Virus record (IMG/VR): IMGVR_UViG_2778261176_000013 | Span: 1-12,423 of that record | DNA from: a virus | Lineage: Duplodnaviria; Heunggongvirae; Uroviricota; Caudoviricetes | Length of the DNA stretch: 12,423 bases | Reading direction: 5' to 3' (one strand) | In this document: in pieces, positions 3,028 to 12,423 of the stretch | Numbering within the stretch: the stretch's first letter is position 1 | Layout of the letters: each line of letters starts with the position of its first letter | Made by a program: the position numbers and the translations under genes | The notes under the pieces: model-generated | The model's database searches: none | What the model saw: only the letters and a program-made list of their open reading frames with translations | What the model was told of the DNA's origin: nothing

Positions 3028-3115
3028 GATTTACCTCTGAGGTAATTAAAAACCACATAAGACATGAAATCAATAGAGTTTATAATATTTTGTTACCTAA
3101 CAGGTAATTATCGAG
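3028..3115 (-). promoter_or_regulatory. Second PL-like promoter-operator cassette between the P-like and DUF1064-like genes
   Basis: Minus-strand reading: operator B (3093-3107), 19-bp gap, -35 TTGATT (3073..3068), 17-bp spacer, -10 TTTAAT (3050..3045), operator A (3031-3045) overlapping the -10 and the SD of the gene starting at 3027. Shares CTATTGA and ATTACCTCA with the PL-like region. Confidence 0.5.
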
Positions 3116-3921: not shown

Positions 3922-4723
3922 CCCACACCCCTTCTATCCAGTCAGTGTTATTCCAGTCAAGCTCATCGCTTTTCCCGGCGTTTTTTGATTTTCCCCTGAT
4001 ATGATTTACGTGCCTGGCGAATTTTTGTTCCCACTGAACCTGCGTGAACACTTTGCCCTCAGCCATCCAGTAATCCCGGAATGCAGCAAGTTCAGCAGGT
4101 GTAAATTCCGGTTCCGGCAGGGCCGTTCCCCACAGCGCAGCACGCCGTCGAAAATCCGGCGACGGATGCCAGCCATCGGTCATCGGAAATTTCCCAATAG
4201 GTTCACTCAGGCCATCCAGAAATGCAGGTTCTGCCACCTGCAACGGCGTACCGTTCGCTTCACTGGTCGGATCACTCTCGCGCGCGTGCGCTATGTGTGG
4301 GGTTTTATATATATCTTCCTCTTCCTCTTCCTCTGGTAACTCCTTTTGTAACGCTGTTGGCGTTACTTTTTGCGTTACTCGTTTTCGATGCTCTGCCACT
4401 CTTCTATTCGTAAGTGCACGTTTTTTCGATGATTCTCCATTATGTCGCTCAAAGTTTGGAAGAATTAGTTTGCCGTCATGATAAGCAAGCCATCCGACGC
4501 TAATGAGGGCGTCAGCAAATCCTGTAATAAAAGCGAGTCTATCAAGTACTCCTTTTGTAACGCTGCCAGCGTTACCGTCTATTGTTTGCTGGTCAGCCCA
4601 TGCCCATATACGAACCAGCTTTCCAAGAACAGCATCTGGATCAATACCCAGAATTTCTGCTATCTGAAAAATTTCAGGTTTATCAGGAGTGATAACTTCA
4701 ACCTTAATCCAGCTGCTTGCCAT
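3893..4723 (-). CDS. Replication initiator / replisome organiser (O-like)
   Basis: Sits immediately upstream of and overlapping the P-like gene. Start trimmed to ATG at 4723 (AGAGGGGAAA SD); the ORF-track GTG at 4741 is less likely. Has an acidic linker (EEEEEED) and contains palindromic iteron-like DNA repeats. Confidence 0.75.
4341..4383. repeat. Iteron-like palindrome cluster inside the O-like gene (candidate origin element)
   Basis: CTCCTTTTGTAACGCTG-TTG-GCGTTAC, then TTTTT-GCGTTAC. Palindrome GTAACGC/GCGTTAC at 4348-4366 plus a third half-site at 4372-4378. Adjacent to (CG)4 at 4281-4288, AT-rich TTTTATATATAT at 4303-4314 and a (CTTCCT)3 repeat. Confidence 0.5.
4560..4585. repeat. Second copy of the iteron-like element inside the O-like gene
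   Basis: TCCTTTTGTAACGCTG-C-CAGCGTTAC; 19-bp perfect palindrome at 4567-4585. The shared 17-nt left arm is identical to the copy at 4341, but the two copies fall in different reading frames of the O-like ORF. Confidence 0.5.
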
Positions 4724-4916
4724 AGGTTTCCCCTCTTGCACTCTTTAGTGCACAAGCAAATTCATTACGATGGCGGTTGGCGCTATTCATTGCACATTCA
4801 ACACATGTTCCGTTCAGAACATACCTTTCAGAGAGATGGCCGTGACGGCACCGCTTTCCTGTGAAATAGCGATTTAACCCGGCTTTTGCGGCCTCCATTC
4901 TGGTTACTATCTTCAA
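4704..4916 (-). CDS. Small zinc-ribbon protein in the cII position (64-70 aa)
   Basis: Cys/His cluster CRHGH...CVEC. Lies between the cro-like and O-like genes. Start is ambiguous: TTG at 4916 (AAGGGG upstream) or ATG at 4898. Overlaps the O-like start by about 20 nt in another frame. Confidence 0.45.
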
Positions 4917-4994
4917 TTTTTCCGCCCCTTTTTGTTATTGATATTGGCTATTTTGCACAATTGGAAAATTTGATCAACCAGATTTGGTTTTTTA

Positions 4995-5009
4995 TTACCT
5001 TTGAGGTAC
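4995..5009. promoter_or_regulatory. Isolated operator-family site downstream of the cro-like gene
   Basis: TTACC-TTTGA-GGTAC (9/10 half-site match). Preceded on the minus strand by CATATCTATT, the same 10-mer found upstream of the PL-like -35. Confidence 0.4.
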
Positions 5010-5019
5010 GAATAGATAT

Positions 5020-5043
5020 GAAAAGACCGCCGGGTGGCGGTCT
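5020..5043 (-). terminator. tR1-like hairpin between the cro-like gene and the cII-position ORF
   Basis: Perfect 8-bp stem AGACCGCC / GGCGGTCT with a 4-nt loop, followed on the minus strand by TTTT then CATATCTATT. Confidence 0.55.
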
Positions 5044-5064
5044 ACAGAGGGTTGTAGCTGGATA

Positions 5065-5295
5065 TCATGAGTAGAAGAAGTATGCCAGTTCTGCTTTTGA
5101 GCGCAGCCATTGTCTTGTTTTACAGGCTTTAAAAAGCCCATTCATCAATACTTTACCTGGCATTTTGCGCTTACCTGTTAAGTGAGTCTGGATATAGTGA
5201 CTCGTCGTTCCGGCTTCCTGTGCGAAGGCTTCACGCTCATCCGGAGTAAGTGCAAGCCAGTGCTTTTTGAAATCGAAATGTCCGTTATCGCTCAT
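5065..5295 (-). CDS. Cro-like HTH DNA-binding protein (76 aa)
   Basis: Small protein divergent from the repressor gene, with an HTH-like segment REAFAQEAGTTSHYIQTHLTGKR. It is the first gene of the operon containing O and P. Confidence 0.65.
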   Translation of the reverse strand: MSDNGHFDFKKHWLALTPDEREAFAQEAGTTSHYIQTHLTGKRKMPGKVLMNGLFKACKTRQWLRSKAELAYFFYS

Positions 5296-5449
5296 AGCTA
5301 TTGCCTGATATTTATTTCAGATAATAAATATTCACCCATAAGGTAACAAAAATCAAGGATAGTTACCCATGAGGTGCATTTACCTGTTGGGTAATATTGC
5401 TTTAAATTGAATCATCTACTGATTCATATATGAGGCGATTTTCCAGAAA
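5296..5449. promoter_or_regulatory. Divergent repressor/cro control region (OR-like) with three operator-type sites
   Basis: Three sites of the ATTACC-N5-GGTAAT family: 5332-5346 (TCACC-CATAA-GGTAA, 9/10), 5363-5377 (TTACC-CATGA-GGTGC, 8/10), 5380-5394 (TTACC-TGTTG-GGTAA, perfect). Candidate minus-strand promoter: -35 TTGTTA 5349..5344, -10 TATTAT 5326..5321. Confidence 0.6.
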
Positions 5450-6034
5450 ATGAAAAGTATCCAGGACGTCCGCAGGCAAAATCTCAACGACTTGATCGAC
5501 CGTGAATTCAATGGTGTTCAGACGCGGATGGCAGAAAAACTTGGAACTCAGGCAAATCTGGTAAACCGCTGGGCTCTTGGCAAGAAGGTTATCGGCGACC
5601 AGGTTGCGCGAAAAATTGAAGCTGCCGCCAATAAACCACGTAACTGGCTTGATATCGATCGCTCGCTTTCTCAGGAAGGTTTTCAGCCTGTCGGCCCAAG
5701 CGACATTGGTCAGCTGGCGGCTCACAACCTGGAACGCTGGATGAGCGAAAGCCGCGACCTTTCAACTCAGGGAAAACTTCACCGCGCATCCGGCGTCGCC
5801 CAGGTGACAATCAGCCGCCTGTTAAACAATGAGGTCAGTGTTTCCATTTCCACCCTGGAGAATGTTGCATCAGCATTCGGGCGTCACGGCTATGAATTAC
5901 TGATTCACCCGCACGACCCTGCGACCATCAACTATGACCGCTCGCGCTACGCATTGTTACCCGAAACCGAGAAAGCAAAGATCGAAAGTTACATTGAATT
6001 TGTCATCAACCAGAACGAAAAAAACAAACAATAA
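5450..6034 (+). CDS. CI-like immunity repressor with two HTH domains and no S24 peptidase domain (194 aa)
   Basis: Two XRE-type HTH segments (GVQTRMAEKLGTQANLVNRW and ASGVAQVTISRLLNNEVSVSISTLENVASAF). No Ser/Lys autopeptidase region recognisable. Divergent from cro across an operator-rich intergenic region and followed by a strong intrinsic terminator. Confidence 0.7.
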   Translation: MKSIQDVRRQNLNDLIDREFNGVQTRMAEKLGTQANLVNRWALGKKVIGDQVARKIEAAANKPRNWLDIDRSLSQEGFQPVGPSDIGQLAAHNLERWMSESRDLSTQGKLHRASGVAQVTISRLLNNEVSVSISTLENVASAFGRHGYELLIHPHDPATINYDRSRYALLPETEKAKIESYIEFVINQNEKNKQ

Positions 6035-6055
6035 AATCATATTTTTCAGTAAGTA

Positions 6056-6078
6056 AGCCGCCTTCTGGCGGCTTTTTT
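6056..6078 (+). terminator. Intrinsic terminator downstream of the CI-like repressor gene
   Basis: AGCCGCC-TTCT-GGCGGCT stem-loop followed by a T6 tract. Confidence 0.75.
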
Positions 6079-6084
6079 ATTGCC

Positions 6085-6187
6085 TATACTATTACCTAAT
6101 GGGTAATTTTTTTAACTCATATCTATTGACACCAAACCAAATACGCATAATTATTACCTCAACGGTAACAGACCGAGGTAACAAGTT
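6085..6187 (+). promoter_or_regulatory. PL-like early promoter flanked by two perfect operators
   Basis: -35 TTGACA at 6126-6131, with a -10-like CATAATTA at 6146-6153. Operator G (6092-6106) lies 19 bp upstream of -35; operator H (6154-6168) abuts the -10 and covers the likely start site. Confidence 0.6.
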
Positions 6188-6340
6188 ATGCAGTGGAAAA
6201 TCATCAACGGTTGGTACTGCGTTACTGCATGCGGATTCATGAGCTGGAAGTTCCGCACCTTACAGGAAGGCATTAAGTGGGCTTTCGTCAGCAAAGAAGC
6301 TCGCGATGTGGCCAACGATAACGAGATATGGGAGGGCTGA
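6188..6340 (+). CDS. Hypothetical Trp-rich small protein (50 aa), first gene of the PL-like operon; not in the supplied ORF track
   Basis: ATG at 6188 with GAGG 9 nt upstream, 20 nt after operator H. Hand translation: MQWKIINGWYCVTACGFMSWKFRTLQEGIKWAFVSKEARDVANDNEIWEG. Stop TGA at 6338-6340, 2 nt before the next ATG. Confidence 0.45.
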   Translation: MQWKIINGWYCVTACGFMSWKFRTLQEGIKWAFVSKEARDVANDNEIWEG

Positions 6341-6342
6341 TA

Positions 6343-6642
6343 ATGAACGTTAATCAGCAGAAAAATCTTCAAAAAATCATGCTGGCATTCGACAAGGACT
6401 ACCGCCTGTCAGAACAGCTATATGACCGACAAGTTGAACTGATCGAGAGCATCCGGCTTCATCAACTAGCCTCAACTTTCGACGCTGTAACAGGTAAAGG
6501 CGTTCGCCAGGAAGTACTGGAGGCCGCTAAAGACAGTCCAGAGTTCGAAGAACTGATGGATTCCTACCGGCGCGAGGCAATGGCAATTATCGCCCGCTGG
6601 GATCTGGCGGATCAGCTTGATGGACAGAGGGACGCGGCATGA
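6343..6642 (+). CDS. Hypothetical protein (99 aa) in the Gam/RacC position upstream of the exonuclease
   Basis: ATG at 6343 preceded by GGGAGGG. Stop overlaps the exonuclease start (ATGA). No family recognised. Confidence 0.6.
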   Translation: MNVNQQKNLQKIMLAFDKDYRLSEQLYDRQVELIESIRLHQLASTFDAVTGKGVRQEVLEAAKDSPEFEELMDSYRREAMAIIARWDLADQLDGQRDAA

Positions 6643-7538
6643 TGCGGAACGCTGGAATCATGGATAGAACAAAATACATCGGAGGAAGCGATGTTGCAGG
6701 GATTCTTGGAATTAGCCCATGGCGCACCCCGCTTGAGGTTTATCTGGATAAGGTCCAGCCACGTGTCAAACCAGTAGACCCAAGCAAGCAGAAAGTTTTC
6801 ACGCGTGGCCAGCGTATGGAGCCATACGTAATAGACCTGCTTTCTGAGGAAACAGGGATGGAAATCGTTCATCGCGGAAACCGCTATATCCACCGTGATT
6901 ACGATTTTATTGCAGCTGAGATCGATGCAGAAGCAGCGTCAGGCGAGAACATTGAGATCAAAACAGTTAGTCCGTTCAAAGCCAAAGAATGGGGAGAAAT
7001 CCAGACAGATGCAATTCCTGTGCATTACACGGCCCAGGCCATGCACGGGTTGATGGTTACAAACAAACAGGTATGCGTTTTCGGTGTGCTTATCGGTGGC
7101 GACGACTTCCGAATCTATCGGGTTGAGCGTGATGAAGAAACTATCCAGGCGATCTTAGAAAAAGAAATCGCTTTCTGGGACCGAGTGAAAAATCTTAACC
7201 CGCCGGAAGCTACCAGCGTAAGCGATGTATCGCTGATGTTTGAGAAAGATGCCGGGACAAGTATCGAGGCTGACGGAAAGGCACTCTCACTATTCAACGA
7301 TCTACGAGACATGAAGTCACGCAGAAAATTACTGGAAGAAGAAATAGCTATATCAGAAGAGAAGCTGAAGATGTACATGCAAGAGCACTCAGTCCTGACC
7401 CTAGACGGAAAGCCGCTCTGCACATGGAAATCTCAGATCAGCAACAGATTCGACCAGAAGCTATTCCAGTCAGTACACCCTGAGTTATTCGAAAAATTCA
7501 AAACAACAACGACACAACGCGTCTTCAGAATGAAGTAA
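6639..7538 (+). CDS. YqaJ-type phage exonuclease (RecE/Red-alpha functional analogue)
   Basis: N-terminal KYIGGSDVAGILGISPWRTPLEVY is the hallmark of YqaJ-like viral recombinase exonucleases. Immediately upstream of recT. Confidence 0.85.
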   Translation: MMRNAGIMDRTKYIGGSDVAGILGISPWRTPLEVYLDKVQPRVKPVDPSKQKVFTRGQRMEPYVIDLLSEETGMEIVHRGNRYIHRDYDFIAAEIDAEAASGENIEIKTVSPFKAKEWGEIQTDAIPVHYTAQAMHGLMVTNKQVCVFGVLIGGDDFRIYRVERDEETIQAILEKEIAFWDRVKNLNPPEATSVSDVSLMFEKDAGTSIEADGKALSLFNDLRDMKSRRKLLEEEIAISEEKLKMYMQEHSVLTLDGKPLCTWKSQISNRFDQKLFQSVHPELFEKFKTTTTQRVFRMK

Positions 7539-7547
7539 GGAGAAAAA

Positions 7548-8570
7548 ATGTCTATCAATGCACTTAAGGCAGCAGCTACCGGTAACCAAGTTGCACATCA
7601 TAATGAGAAACCAACAACTCTGGCCGGACTTCTGGCAGACCCAAAAATTAAAGCTCAGATGGCTTTGGCACTTCCAAAGCACATGACAGCAGACCGTCTG
7701 GCGCGCATAGCAACCACAGAGATCCGAAAGGTTCCAAAACTTGCATCATGCGACCAAGCCAGCTTCCTGGGGGCAATTATGCAATGTGCCCAATTGGGTC
7801 TTGAACCAGGCGGAGCTCTTGGACACGCTTACCTGATACCGTTCGACAAACGCCAGAAAGTAAATGGAAGATGGGAAACCGTATCTACAGAAGCACAGCT
7901 GATTATCGGCTATCGCGGAATGATTGACCTTGCCCGCCGCTCTGGGCAGATCCTGAGTATCTCAGCTCGTACCGTACATACAAACGACAAATTCAGCTAC
8001 TCATACGGCATGGAAGAAACGCTCGAGCATTTACCTTGCGAAACAGGTGACCGCGGAGAATTAACACACGTTTACGCCGTTGCACGACTGAAAGATGGCG
8101 GAGTCCAATTTGAAGTTATGAGCCGGGCAGCCGTTGAGAAAGTTCGTGCACTGAGCAAAGCCGGTAGCAGTGGCCCATGGGTTGATCACTTCGATGAGAT
8201 GGCTAAAAAAACAGTAATTCGCCGACTGTTCAAATATCTTCCTGTTTCTATTGAAATGCAGAAGGCTGTTGTTATGGATGAGCGCGCTGAAGCTGGACTT
8301 AGCCAAGATAACGCAGCTGTTATCACTGGTGAATATTCCGTAGTTGACGATGAGCGTCAACACCTATCGCCAATTTCAGATTCAGAACGAGAAGAAGCTC
8401 GAGAATATATCATCGCGATACTTAATAGCCTGGATCCATCTGCTGAAGATGCAAAAACGATGTTCAAGCGCGCTGAAAATGAAATTAACACCATGGCTGA
8501 AAAGCTCGGTGATGAATATCACCAAAAATTCATGATGACGCTTAACGATATGCGTCCAGAATTCGAGTAA
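7548..8570 (+). CDS. recT: RecT single-strand annealing recombinase
   Basis: AAGGAG SD. Long stretches match Rac RecT as I recall it: LPKHMTADRLARIATTEIRKVPKL, QLIIGYRGMIDLARRSGQI, THVYAVARLKDGG.QFEVM, EMAKKT.IRRLFKYLPVSIE. Confidence 0.92.
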   Translation: MSINALKAAATGNQVAHHNEKPTTLAGLLADPKIKAQMALALPKHMTADRLARIATTEIRKVPKLASCDQASFLGAIMQCAQLGLEPGGALGHAYLIPFDKRQKVNGRWETVSTEAQLIIGYRGMIDLARRSGQILSISARTVHTNDKFSYSYGMEETLEHLPCETGDRGELTHVYAVARLKDGGVQFEVMSRAAVEKVRALSKAGSSGPWVDHFDEMAKKTVIRRLFKYLPVSIEMQKAVVMDERAEAGLSQDNAAVITGEYSVVDDERQHLSPISDSEREEAREYIIAILNSLDPSAEDAKTMFKRAENEINTMAEKLGDEYHQKFMMTLNDMRPEFE

Positions 8571-8619
8571 CCACCACCGCGGCGCCACGTGCGCCTCACT
8601 GCAACCAAGAGAGGTATTC

Positions 8620-8868
8620 ATGAAAGGTGCATTAGGTAAGAAAGAACTCCTGGCGGTGGTGCCACTGTCATGGAGCACTATCGACCGTATGGAGCGCGCA
8701 GGGGAATTTCCTAAACGCTGGTATATCACCGATAAACGCTGCGCATGGAACCGTGACGAAGTTGAGCGTTGGCTTGATGAACGTCAGGCAGCAAGCCCGG
8801 CAGAGTTCCAGGGTAAAAAGCCTCCTGTTCAGCAACGTGTATATCGTCCTGTGAGCAACGCTGCATGA
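8620..8868 (+). CDS. AlpA/Xis-family small DNA-binding protein (excisionase-like regulator)
   Basis: AGAGAGG SD. Motif SWSTIDRMERAGEFPKRWYITDKRCAWNRDEVERWL resembles AlpA/excisionase winged-helix proteins. Confidence 0.7.
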   Translation: MKGALGKKELLAVVPLSWSTIDRMERAGEFPKRWYITDKRCAWNRDEVERWLDERQAASPAEFQGKKPPVQQRVYRPVSNAA

Positions 8869-8977
8869 GTGCGCTGCTAAGGCACTGGAGCAAATGGTCA
8901 GGATGGTACTTATTCCTGGCCTCTGTTTCAGCATGGCTTTATCTGCTGGCATTAATTTTCAGAGAGGGTTGGATTAA

Positions 8978-9277
8978 GTGAGAAAGTTAAGCCGACTTGA
9001 AAAATATCACATGAACAAGGTTTCAATGCGCAGTCCGTCAAAGATTGTCGCCGTTACTCCTGCGGCGATAGAGATCGAAAAACGCGCGATTGAAAGAGAG
9101 AAAAAAGGGCAGTTCCGCATTGCCGCTCACCTTTGGCTTCAGTGTATGGATGTTGCTTCTGGTGATGTTGAGCGTGCAAGGATCGCGGTTCGCAGGGACC
9201 AATGTATCACAAAAGGTAACGGCCTTCGCCGTGGCGACTATAGCGGCATAGGATGTTGTGGGGTGGTTTATGACTAA
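8978..9277 (+). CDS. PerC-like putative transcriptional regulator (99 aa; start uncertain)
   Basis: GTG at 8978 preceded by AGAGAGGG; internal ATGs at 9011 and 9026 are alternatives. RIAAHLWLQCMDVASGDVERARIAVRRDQC resembles the PerC-family pattern. Overlaps the methyltransferase start. Confidence 0.45.
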   Translation: MRKLSRLEKYHMNKVSMRSPSKIVAVTPAAIEIEKRAIEREKKGQFRIAAHLWLQCMDVASGDVERARIAVRRDQCITKGNGLRRGDYSGIGCCGVVYD

Positions 9278-9920
9278 GAAATACACACTAATCTATGCAG
9301 ATCCACCCTGGGTATACCGGGACAAAGCCGCAGATGGTAATCGCGGTGCCGGTTTTAAATATCCGGTTATGAGTGTGCTGGACATCTGCCGCCTTCCTGT
9401 GTGGGATTTGGCCGATGAAAACTGTCTGTTGGCCATGTGGTGGGTGCCAACACAACCACTCGAAGCACTAAAAGTTATTGAAGCCTGGGGATTCCGTCTG
9501 ATGACCATGAAGGGATTCACGTGGATAAAATGTGGTAGTCGACAACCAGATAAACTGGTTATGGGTATGGGTCACATGACTCGCGCCAATAGTGAAGATT
9601 GCCTGTTTGCGGTAAAGGGAAAACTACCTCCGCGCATTAATGCAGGGATCGTTCAGTCATTTACCGCACCGCGACTTGAGCATTCAAGAAAACCAGATGT
9701 CGTTCGTGAAAAACTTGTGCAATTGTTAGGCGATGTTTCTCGCATTGAACTGTTCGCCCGCCAGTCGTCTCATGGCTTCGATGTTTGGGGTAATCAGTGC
9801 GAAGACCCGGCAGTGCAACTACACCCTGGATACGCGTTGGATATTGGCGGATTAACAAATGCATTCAGCAATTCTCCGCTGTCACCAACAGACAACCAGG
9901 GGCGGGAGCGTGCAGCATGA
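9270..9920 (+). CDS. MT-A70-family DNA N6-adenine methyltransferase (orphan, no adjacent restriction enzyme)
   Basis: N-terminal YTLIYADPPWVY carries the DPPW catalytic motif. ATG at 9270 (GTG at 9258 is an alternative). Stop overlaps the start of the next ORF (ATGA). Confidence 0.8.
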   Translation: MTKKYTLIYADPPWVYRDKAADGNRGAGFKYPVMSVLDICRLPVWDLADENCLLAMWWVPTQPLEALKVIEAWGFRLMTMKGFTWIKCGSRQPDKLVMGMGHMTRANSEDCLFAVKGKLPPRINAGIVQSFTAPRLEHSRKPDVVREKLVQLLGDVSRIELFARQSSHGFDVWGNQCEDPAVQLHPGYALDIGGLTNAFSNSPLSPTDNQGRERAA

Positions 9921-10165
9921 AGCAGATTATGGTTGCACACAACGGCGTCAGGTTTGAAGTCGTCATGGTTTTGACTAAGTTCCACAATGATGAGGTATTG
10001 CACAGAAAAGAAACTGTAACTTACCGTTATAAACACCGCAGTTCAGCTGTTAGAAAATTACGGAAGATTGCGGAAGAACTAAAAAATGATCCTCATCGTG
10101 TTATTGAGGTAAAAGGCAACCCATATAAAATCAAAACTTCAGTGGAGCTAAGACATATGCAATAA
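9917..10165 (+). CDS. Hypothetical basic protein (82 aa), coupled to the methyltransferase
   Basis: ATG at 9917 overlaps the methyltransferase stop, with GGGAGCG upstream. Lys/Arg-rich. Followed by a 324-bp intergenic region with a terminator-like element. Confidence 0.5.
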   Translation: MKQIMVAHNGVRFEVVMVLTKFHNDEVLHRKETVTYRYKHRSSAVRKLRKIAEELKNDPHRVIEVKGNPYKIKTSVELRHMQ

Positions 10166-10296
10166 AATCACGCCTGACGAATCGCGATTATCTCGCTATT
10201 GGTATTGCAGAGATTGCTGGACTCAATGGCGCATGATTTGACAATGCCGCCAGAGCTATCGCATACTGACCGCACTAGAAAACAAACAGCGGTCAT

Positions 10297-10324
10297 CCGC
10301 ACCCGATAGCTTTGCGGCTTTTTT
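10297..10324 (+). terminator. Possible intrinsic terminator after the methyltransferase operon
   Basis: CCGCA ... TGCGG stem (5 bp) with an 11-nt loop, followed by C and a T6 tract. Confidence 0.35.
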
Positions 10325-10409
10325 ATGCCTGCAATCTGGCATAGTCACATCCGTACAAAGGTCGGGTGGAGAGGCGTAATACAACACCCGAAAGGGGAAT
10401 ATGCCCGGA

Positions 10410-10489
10410 GCTACTGTTTGTGCTCTAGTTGACACCCGATCACCAGTTACTAACTGGTTTTCGTAACTAAAAACAAACAGGAGGTCATC
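10410..10489 (+). promoter_or_regulatory. Antirepressor upstream region with TTGACA hexamer and a 15-bp perfect palindrome
   Basis: TTGACA at 10429-10434. Perfect palindrome CCAGTTA-C-TAACTGG at 10443-10457. No convincing -10 hexamer found by eye. Confidence 0.4.
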
Positions 10490-11140
10490 ATGACCAGTCA
10501 ACTCATCCCCGTATTCAACGGCACTATATCCAACGAAACCGCTCTTCTCGTTAATGCCCGTGATTTACACACTTTCCTCGATGTGGGTAAGCGATTTGCT
10601 TCGTGGATTGTCGAACGAATTGCTGAATATGGTTTCGTTGAAAATCAAGACTTTATGATTATTTCCCAAGTTCGGGAAAAAATAGGCAGAGGCCGTCCTG
10701 CAAAAGACTACCACCTCACCCTCGATACAGCCAAAGAGCTGGCGATGGTCGAGCGTAATGAAAAAGGTCGTCAGGTACGACGCTACTTCATTGAATGCGA
10801 GAAACGTTTAAGACAACAAGAAACAAAAGTGGAGAAGGTCTTGTCAGGCTTCATGCCCGCCATTATGGAGGCGATCAAGCTGGAAGACAAAAAAGAATAC
10901 AGTGCCCCACTGAAGCCCGGCTACCGCAGCCTGATTCACTCGCCGTCTGGTGTTCTCGGCCTGACGGAGAACTCACTGCTGATGAATCTGCTGAACCAGT
11001 TACAGGAAGACGGGCACGACGTATCGGGTGCGGCGGCGGAGCTGACCACCATGTTCTGCTACATCGTCGGTGTGAGCAAATGCCTGCGTGATATCCAGAC
11101 CCACGCGGAGTACATCAACGACAAGGCAGGGTTCTTCTGA
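10490..11140 (+). CDS. Phage antirepressor, AntA/AntB N-terminal domain type (216 aa)
   Basis: AGGAGG 7 nt upstream of ATG. N-terminal region (LIPVFNGT...ARDLHTFLDVGKRFASWIVERIAEYGFVENQDF...KDYHLTLDTAKELAMVERNEKGRQVRRYF) matches AntA/AntB antirepressor domains as I recall them. Confidence 0.75.
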   Translation: MTSQLIPVFNGTISNETALLVNARDLHTFLDVGKRFASWIVERIAEYGFVENQDFMIISQVREKIGRGRPAKDYHLTLDTAKELAMVERNEKGRQVRRYFIECEKRLRQQETKVEKVLSGFMPAIMEAIKLEDKKEYSAPLKPGYRSLIHSPSGVLGLTENSLLMNLLNQLQEDGHDVSGAAAELTTMFCYIVGVSKCLRDIQTHAEYINDKAGFF

Positions 11141-11172
11141 CGGGCGGCGGCACATGGATGTGTCGGGCAAAA

Positions 11173-12423
11173 TTATTCCCCCGCCATCCACTTCTCAAAC
11201 TTCGACGGGGAGAACGGAATCAGATCCGTATGCTCCCCGTCAATCCATGAATCAATCATATCGGCCCACTGCTGCAACATGTAGGCGCGCTGTCTGGCGT
11301 ATTCCGCTTTGTTGTATACGGCGCGCACACCTTTCTGCTCATGTGCCAGAGCCTTTTCAATCCAGTCTGAAGGATAACCAGCCTCATGCAACAACGTACT
11401 GGCTGTACGGCGCATATCATGTACAGTGAAGTCCTGAATATGCTCACCATCTTCATTTATTATTTTCACCGTTCTGTCGATCAGAGAGTTCAGCGCGGCA
11501 TTAGATAATGGCTTCCGGAAATTGTAACGACCAGGAACCAGATATTCACTTCCACCAGCGCACATCTGCAACCCGACCAATATATCCTGTGCCTGTTTAG
11601 GCAGGTAAATAACGTGCGCCCGGCTTCCCTTCATGCGGTCTGGAGGAATTGTCCATGTCCATTTTTTAAAATCTATTTCATCCCACGTTGCATTGGTGAA
11701 TTCGCCCTTACGAACCATAGTGATAAGCACCAGTTTTAAAGCCATTTTCATAGTGCCCATAGCACCAATGGCATCCAGCGTGCGGAAGAACAGGCCAATT
11801 TCTTCTGGTGTCAGTGTTCGCTCTCGTGGTTTAAATATGGCGATAGACGAAGGTTTAATGTCAGCCGCAGGATTAAACAAACCATGACCACGGTCATTGG
11901 CGTGACGGTATACGCTACTGATGATCTCCCTGGCCTGCACTGCTGTTGCCCGGCCACCGCGTTCGACAATCCGGTCACACAAATCACGAACCATCGATGT
12001 GGTAATTTCAGCCATCATTTTATTGCCAAGAACCGGAAGTATGTCACGGTCGATCACCGCCTGTTTCATTGCGCGGGTACTGTCAGCCAGGATGACGTGT
12101 TTCATATAACTGTCGGTATGTACCGCAAACGTCTCGGCACCACGAATCTTTTTGATACCGTCACGTTTAGCCGCAGCCGGTGACTGGCCTGCTTTAAGCA
12201 GCTTCTTTGCAGCAATCAGTTCTTCTCGCGCTTCTGCCAGGCTGATACCGTCACGCCCATACTGCCCGATTACCAGTGTTTCGCGGCGACCGTTGATACG
12301 GTAGTCATAGCGAAACGAGACCGTGCCTGACGTAAGCACAGCTACATACAGCCCGTCACGATCGGAGACCTTGTACAGTTTGTCCTGCGGCTTGAGGTTT
12401 TTTAATTTTGTATCGGTAAGCAC
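11173..12423 (-). CDS. Tyrosine integrase, P4-type (N-terminus truncated by window edge)
   Basis: N-terminal LTDTKLKNLKP...YKVSDRDGLYVAVLTSGTVSFRYDYRINGRRETL is typical of P4-like integrases. C-terminal catalytic region has HDMRRT and AHEQKGVRAVYNKAEY (conserved Tyr). The ORF runs to the last base of the window. Confidence 0.9.
   Translation of the reverse strand: MLTDTKLKNLKPQDKLYKVSDRDGLYVAVLTSGTVSFRYDYRINGRRETLVIGQYGRDGISLAEAREELIAAKKLLKAGQSPAAAKRDGIKKIRGAETFAVHTDSYMKHVILADSTRAMKQAVIDRDILPVLGNKMMAEITTSMVRDLCDRIVERGGRATAVQAREIISSVYRHANDRGHGLFNPAADIKPSSIAIFKPRERTLTPEEIGLFFRTLDAIGAMGTMKMALKLVLITMVRKGEFTNATWDEIDFKKWTWTIPPDRMKGSRAHVIYLPKQAQDILVGLQMCAGGSEYLVPGRYNFRKPLSNAALNSLIDRTVKIINEDGEHIQDFTVHDMRRTASTLLHEAGYPSDWIEKALAHEQKGVRAVYNKAEYARQRAYMLQQWADMIDSWIDGEHTDLIPFSPSKFEKWMAGE

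Follow-up and report, generated by a model that had tools for sequence, protein, structure and literature searches.

A conserved 50-codon gene at the head of a putatively Rep-repressed early-left operon in a phiV10/epsilon15-type prophage of Escherichia coli

We analysed a small open reading frame (ORF) at positions 6188..6340 (+) of a 12,423-nucleotide stretch of viral DNA (IMG/VR record IMGVR_UViG_2778261176_000013; the whole stretch is hereafter called the window). Judged by its conservation, the ORF is a genuine protein-coding gene and a core gene of the Uetakevirus-type temperate phages of Enterobacterales (epsilon15, phiV10, SPC32H). From the layout of promoter and operators, it heads an early-left operon repressed by Rep in the window. 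Direct reading and translation place its ATG at 6188, followed by 50 sense codons and a TGA at 6338-6340; the predicted product is MQWKIINGWYCVTACGFMSWKFRTLQEGIKWAFVSKEARDVANDNEIWEG. A Shine-Dalgarno sequence (GAGG, 6175-6178, +) lies 9 nt upstream of the ATG, and GAGG or GGGG is kept at the same distance in most relatives. These coordinates, the GAGG site, the codon count and the position of the next ATG, 2 nt past the stop, had all been given in an earlier note on this DNA, and each agrees with our reading. The same note counted five Trp and three Cys; the five Trp are there (W3, W9, W20, W31 and W48), but Cys number only two (C11 and C15), next to two Arg and four Lys.

Because the window contains 144 ORFs of at least 30 aa, a 50-codon ORF alone says little; it is conservation that makes this one more than a chance frame. 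The frame is open over 48-51 codons in Salmonella (epsilon15), Scandinavium, Kluyvera, Pseudocitrobacter, Citrobacter (two species), Klebsiella and Erwinia dacicola; metagenomic, Hafnia and Serratia-type relatives at a greater distance (36-57% identity) keep it open as well. At least eight other genera carry it intact. Among nine close loci, 31/40 sites vary at codon position 3, as against 13/40 and 12/40 at positions 1 and 2 (together 25/80; Fisher p=2e-6), and the Nei-Gojobori dN/dS is 0.04 over codons 2-18 and 0.14 over codons 2-40. In a set of 14 loci that includes distant members, and in which synonymous sites are near saturation, the corresponding values are 0.18 (codons 2-18), 0.19 (codons 19-36) and 0.45 (C-terminal tail). 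The peptide MQWKIINGWYCVTACG is invariant in the close set although 11/18 third positions vary, so its invariance is at the amino-acid level. In the variant alleles P0001 and P0005 the changes are in-frame duplications, not frameshifts. Nearly every allele with a divergent and apparently frameshifted C-terminus is a cluster of one sequence. The earlier note had proposed conservation and dN/dS across homologous prophages as a check; the comparison finds the frame kept and codons 2-36 under purifying selection (dN/dS 0.04-0.19). An Rfam scan found no leader or other RNA family at threshold inside the ORF.

Nucleotide comparison identifies the window as an E. coli prophage of the phiV10/epsilon15 type (Uetakevirus). 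Over the 2.2 kb surrounding the small ORF, it shares 98-99.6% identity with prophages in numerous E. coli chromosomes and ~79% with Salmonella phage epsilon15; rep, the small ORF and the next gene share 96-98% identity with phiV10, vB_EcoP_ZX5, TL-2011b and other Uetakevirus phages. The prophage adjoins guaA in the closest E. coli genome. Within this group, SPC32H serves as a model for the non-canonical Rep-Ant switch, and phiV10 has found use as a reporter phage for O157.

The small protein is 100% identical to phiV10 gp39 (PhiV10p39, YP_512294.1) and 79% identical to epsilon15 gp37 (NP_848245.1), and RefSeq lists it under a WP_ accession in the E. coli genome closest to the window. It matches phrog_898 (category: unknown function) over residues 1-50 of the 50-position profile (E=1.9e-38), as do all 21 aligned family members. 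The description of the ORF as unlisted therefore holds for the ORF track supplied with the window, for which the suggested length cutoff fits (50 aa is below the 60-aa default of the lister), but not for public annotation, where phiV10, epsilon15, RefSeq and PHROG 898 all include it. The gene is already catalogued as a hypothetical protein and so is not new as a feature. A 60-aa cutoff nevertheless conceals real genes. A second one in the window is a 38-aa ORF at 8865-8981 (+), which matches PHROG 17484 (membrane protein; E=2.6e-27) and is the homologue of phiV10 gp35 and epsilon15 gp32.

We found the gene in 36 phage records, which are the same records that carry full-length Rep; every annotated one, SPC32H included, calls the product a hypothetical protein. 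The segment is present in 558/5,426 complete E. coli genomes, so that about one in ten carries this strongly constrained 50-aa gene of unassigned function. A profile search of 1.84 billion proteins returned 19 representatives at 50% identity, and a 5.8 billion-protein database gave 62 clusters at 90% identity, all from Enterobacterales; every source-named cluster among the 62 is called hypothetical or uncharacterised. Both searches recovered the family only, with no fusions to other domains, and one sequence, P0029, was discarded as a low-complexity false match. On these searches, the family is small and limited to Enterobacterales. Among the papers searched, none names the accession numbers or PHROG 898, and the description of vB_EcoP_ZX5 deals with Rep, Ant and Int and did not study the small ORF (PMC9782041).

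The region upstream of the ORF has the features of a repressor-controlled promoter. The rep gene (5450..6034, +), co-directional with the small ORF, encodes a double helix-turn-helix (HTH) repressor of the SPC32H/epsilon15 type (Pfam HTH_3 in two stretches, E=1.2e-9; annotated as a repressor in phiV10, epsilon15 and SPC32H). Its transcript would end at an intrinsic terminator with an 8-bp GC-rich stem and a T-run (6055..6082, +), which the terminator scan rated as strong and which phiV10 annotates at the same place. Beyond it lies a sigma-70-like early-left (PL-like) promoter (6126..6154, +) that matches the consensus at 10/12 positions, with TTGACA at 6126, a 17-nt spacer and AATTAT at 6149-6154. 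Two Rep-type palindromes frame this promoter: the putative operator O1, TTACCTAATGGGTAA, lies 5' of the -35 (6092..6106), and O2, TTACCTCAACGGTAA, abuts the -10 (6154..6168), ~33-34 nt 5' of the ATG. Seven copies of the palindrome TTACC-N5-GGTAA stand in the window, as against 0.21 expected, and form three clusters: between the DUF1064/resolvase-like gene and the P gene (3031-3045, 3093-3107), around the divergent Cro-like/rep region (4995-5009, 5332-5346, 5380-5394), and at the early-left promoter (6092-6106, 6154-6168). The epsilon15 record labels the homologous sites as lysogeny repressor-binding sites. In both phiV10 and epsilon15, gp39 and gp37 occupy the same slot as the small ORF, after rep, terminator and operators and before the gp36-like gene.

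Across relatives, an operator lies 27-34 nt 5' of the small-ORF ATG in 16/16 loci, and two leader arrangements can be distinguished. In the short leader (the window, L085, L086, L090, L092, L100 and L101), O1 is at -95, the -35 at -61 and O2 at about -33 from the ATG; TTGACA is found at -59 to -62 in all short-leader relatives. In the long leader (epsilon15, L084, L087-L089, L095, L096 and L099), the promoter and O1/O2 lie 100-220 nt upstream and a third operator is at ~-28; epsilon15 thus differs from the window, with its short leader and two operators, in having a ~100-nt leader with a third operator. In two loci, L094 and L098, the operator-ORF unit is set apart from the promoter by one or two additional genes. 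The earlier note's placement of the ORF as first gene of the PL-like operon is therefore right for the window and fails as a universal rule, and it is the unit of operator, ribosome-binding site and ORF, not a strict first position, that is conserved.

The long leaders contain hairpin-like GC-rich inverted repeats, some followed by a T-rich run, seen by eye in L002 (2915-2972), L088, L094 and L098. These sit ~-90 to -35 from the ATG, between the promoter-proximal operators and the third operator, and are absent from the short-leader window; they could be an attenuator or a processing site. In a transcript reading through from rep, nucleotides 6146-6160 (the -10 and the left part of O2) are predicted to pair with the Shine-Dalgarno sequence and AUG at 6175-6192 (z=-1.9), and in a transcript starting at ~6161 the same initiation region is predicted to be free. 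We did not adopt this start-hiding hairpin, as the consensus that alifold gave for six short-leader loci was weak (-5.9 kcal/mol) and included a single compensatory pair. The operator half-sites are kept across phages whose Reps share only 40-55% identity, which poses the question of how immunity specificity is set.

At its 3' end, the small ORF is joined closely to the gene that follows. The Shine-Dalgarno sequence of the next gene (GGGAGGG, 6330..6336, +) lies inside codons 48-50, and the next ATG is at 6343, two bases past the stop. Stop and next start overlap as ATGA or GTGA in 11/16 loci and are 2-4 nt apart in the rest. By this arrangement, the small ORF is translationally coupled into a recombination operon. 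In the window, the next gene (6343..6642, +) encodes a 99-aa protein of PHROG 856 (epsilon15 gp36-like) and is followed by a YqaJ-type recombination exonuclease (6639..7538, +) and the single-strand annealing protein RecT (7548..8570, +), both named from RefSeq, the former in near-identical genomes.

The gene after the small ORF is interchangeable among relatives, and we observed five types: gp36-like proteins of 99-100 aa (PHROG 856), a Pfam Gam homologue (L099, E=3.6e-12), proteins of 89 aa or 94 aa, a 300-348-aa protein (coiled-coil according to PGAP), and a 550-aa RecE-like fusion directly 3' of the ORF. An exonuclease (YqaJ or DUF3799) and RecT lie downstream in every locus with enough sequence. 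The higher dN/dS of the C-terminal tail is explained by the tail going with the downstream module, whose Shine-Dalgarno sequence it encodes. In the window, the 99-aa protein has no Pfam match, Gam (PF06064) included. Its gene fills the operon slot held by the Gam homologue in L099; a pairwise BLASTP comparison of the two proteins gives E=5e-4, but hhalign, at a probability of only 3.7-8.7%, does not support homology to Gam. The PHROG 856 protein may be a nuclease inhibitor, either analogous or very divergent.

In the small protein, M1, W3, G8, Y10, T13, G16, S19, F22, W31, F33 and A38 are invariant or nearly so. An AlphaFold2 (AF2) model built with 21 sequences, distant members included, is of medium confidence (pLDDT 76, pTM 0.50) and predicts strands at residues 2-6, 9-13 and 19-22 and a helix at 25-48, with the invariant N7-G8 at the hairpin turn between the first two strands. 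A first run with 14 close sequences (pLDDT 54, all helix) was discarded as uninformative. The net charge is near zero (-0.5 at pH 7) and the maximum KD19 hydropathy is 0.57, values that fit neither a typical nucleic-acid binder nor a membrane protein. In relatives, the KD19 maximum ranges from 0.13 to 1.45, as against ~1.6 or more for a membrane span, and a membrane helix at residues 3-20 was ruled out by hydropathy together with polar substitutions (P0039 has GKRRE inside the segment). The two Cys are dispensable, which does not fit a metal- or disulfide-dependent Cys protein: in distant members, C11 is replaced by L, Y, F, H or I, and C15 is replaced by S or deleted. Scans with Pfam, NCBIfam and PADLOC gave no match for the small protein or its neighbour. 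A sequence search of the PDB with the family profile returned only a transmembrane helix of TRPML2 (E=0.24), which we regard as a chance match. No specific relative of the small protein, by structure or by sequence, emerged outside its own family.

Our leading interpretation, which we hold tentatively, is that the small protein is a stoichiometric protein binder made first on derepression, most likely with a conserved host protein as its target. In the lysogen, the gene would be kept off by the rep terminator and the operators; after infection or induction, its product would be the first protein made. That product is modelled as a small soluble domain of three beta strands and one helix, with an almost invariant N-terminal Trp/Tyr-rich beta-hairpin, which may bind in stoichiometric amounts to a protein partner conserved across Enterobacterales. 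The partner would most likely be a host housekeeping protein rather than DNA or RNA, and the effect might, by analogy with lambda Kil, CIII or Gam, be host takeover or conditioning. A host rather than a phage partner is suggested because the next gene is interchangeable and because the divergence of the small protein does not track that of Rep. When identities to the window copies are compared, the small protein varies in step with the Cro-like gene (r=0.71) but shows no such correlation with Rep (r=-0.24), which disfavours tight co-evolution with Rep. The two small genes that flank rep are much better conserved (50-78% identity for the Cro-like gene, 42-84% for the small ORF) than Rep, which in most relatives falls to 40-59%, and in these comparisons Rep behaves like an exchangeable immunity cassette.

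Several small early proteins offer partial parallels to such a host-directed binder. Like lambda Kil (47 aa, an FtsZ inhibitor) and P22 Kil, the small protein is tiny, belongs to an early-left operon and would be repressed in the lysogen, and the lambda order kil-gam-bet-exo likewise places a small gene upstream of genes for Gam, exonuclease and annealing protein. It differs from Kil in being promoter-proximal, a core gene and predicted to be beta-rich, and has no sequence relationship to it. With lambda CIII (54 aa, an FtsH inhibitor) it has in common its small size, its early-left origin, a conserved core and an amphipathic helix; CIII acts on a conserved host protein, and such an action is here only proposed. 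There is no sequence similarity to CIII, and no CII-type partner was identified in the window. Profile comparisons with hhalign gave probabilities of 0.2% for lambda Kil, 0.4% for P22 Kil, 0.5% for lambda CIII and 0.1% for P22 Arf.

A bolder version would make the small protein the founding member of a new class of immediate-early effectors in Rep/Ant-type (epsilon15-like) phages, in which the Trp-rich hairpin docks on a conserved Enterobacterales protein or on the phage switch by a mechanism unlike those of Kil, CIII, Gam, N or Cro. We consider this unlikely; if it were true, the obligatory unit of operator, ribosome-binding site and ORF would be explained by the gene having to be silenced exceptionally tightly in the lysogen.

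Alternatively, the small protein could regulate the phage's own programme by acting on Rep, RNA polymerase or the early transcript, in lysis commitment, antitermination or lysogenisation. Its first position behind a Rep-controlled promoter would suit such a role, as would an operator that abuts the ribosome-binding site in 16/16 loci, even where genes are inserted after the promoter, and its perfect co-occurrence with Rep in the phage collection. The protein, however, has no HTH and is neither basic nor Arg-rich, and the Cro-like and Ant genes already fill the switch roles. The lack of correlation with Rep also weighs against this alternative, and the N-terminus of the small protein is invariant where Rep drops to ~41% identity. 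Lambda N, too, is the first gene of a repressor-controlled leftward operon. The earlier note set the small protein apart from N as not arginine-rich, and this is borne out by two Arg in 50 residues, a net charge of about zero and the lack of a match to any Pfam family, that of N included. The scan for intrinsic terminators predicted none on the + strand in 6100-11300 that would call for antitermination. On both grounds the small ORF is not an N analogue, and we give a regulatory role in the phage programme a low probability.

A third possibility is that the small protein is an accessory of the recombination module in the manner of P22 Arf, produced by coupling in a fixed ratio and modulating RecT- or exonuclease-mediated recombination. 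Arf (47 aa, an Erf cofactor) is likewise encoded by a tiny ORF translationally coupled into a recombination operon, but it is highly acidic and its gene directly overlaps erf. The small ORF is separated from RecT by 2-4 genes (two genes and 1.2 kb in the window). We regard this role as doubtful.

Quite improbable, in our view, is an anti-defence protein that, early in infection, neutralises a bacterial immune system or an abortive-infection module of the toxin-antitoxin type. Genes of that kind are typically accessory and fast-evolving, whereas the small ORF is a core gene with a dN/dS of 0.04-0.19, and PADLOC, which covers defence proteins only, gave no match. Least probable by far, and already disfavoured, is a functionless peptide, with the ORF acting either as a translated leader to load ribosomes onto the coupled gene or as an attenuator that senses Trp: the stop-start overlap or 2-4 nt spacing in all loci, the Shine-Dalgarno sequence of the next gene inside the ORF and the five Trp codons speak for it, but codons 2-36 are under amino-acid-level purifying selection (dN/dS 0.18-0.19 with synonymous change near saturation), a foldable domain is predicted, and, unlike in the trpL and TnaC leader peptides, the Trp codons are scattered (3, 9, 20, 31, 48) rather than tandem and no terminator follows the ORF, within which Rfam detects no leader.

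Beyond the operon described above, the Cro-like gene (PHROG 35 match) lies at 5065-5295 on the - strand. The genes 3' of RecT encode, in order, an AlpA-type excisionase, the 38-aa membrane protein, PerC, an MT-A70 methylase, a DUF1382 protein and Ant, and the integrase gene lies beyond Ant on the - strand. The ant anti-repressor gene (PHROG 377, E=3.7e-66) is at 10490-11140 (+), between the DUF1382 gene and the integrase gene. No LexA box (CTGT-N8-ACAG, at most one mismatch) was found upstream of it, and a promoter-like site is present in the ant region of the window at 10238-10267. The closest chromosome (L003) lacks the ~1-kb ant-bearing segment, which corresponds to window positions 10165-11173.

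The optional 300-348-aa insert seen in some relatives stands directly after the small ORF, before the ~100-aa gene and the exonuclease, and belongs to no Pfam family. It was found in L085 (2644-3627), L087 (2647-3549), L089 (2647-3639), L094 and L096 (~4150-5196), L101 (3249-4229) and L106 (1727-2761), and the inserts have the common motif KGR...SLAAQVSRSKTAVEKPGRDYL. In the last of these loci, from E. coli PEC399, the small ORF (1569-1718) is intact with 49 codons and ends in ...IWE, yet has no RefSeq annotation; a mosaic junction with a different downstream module falls at its last codons.
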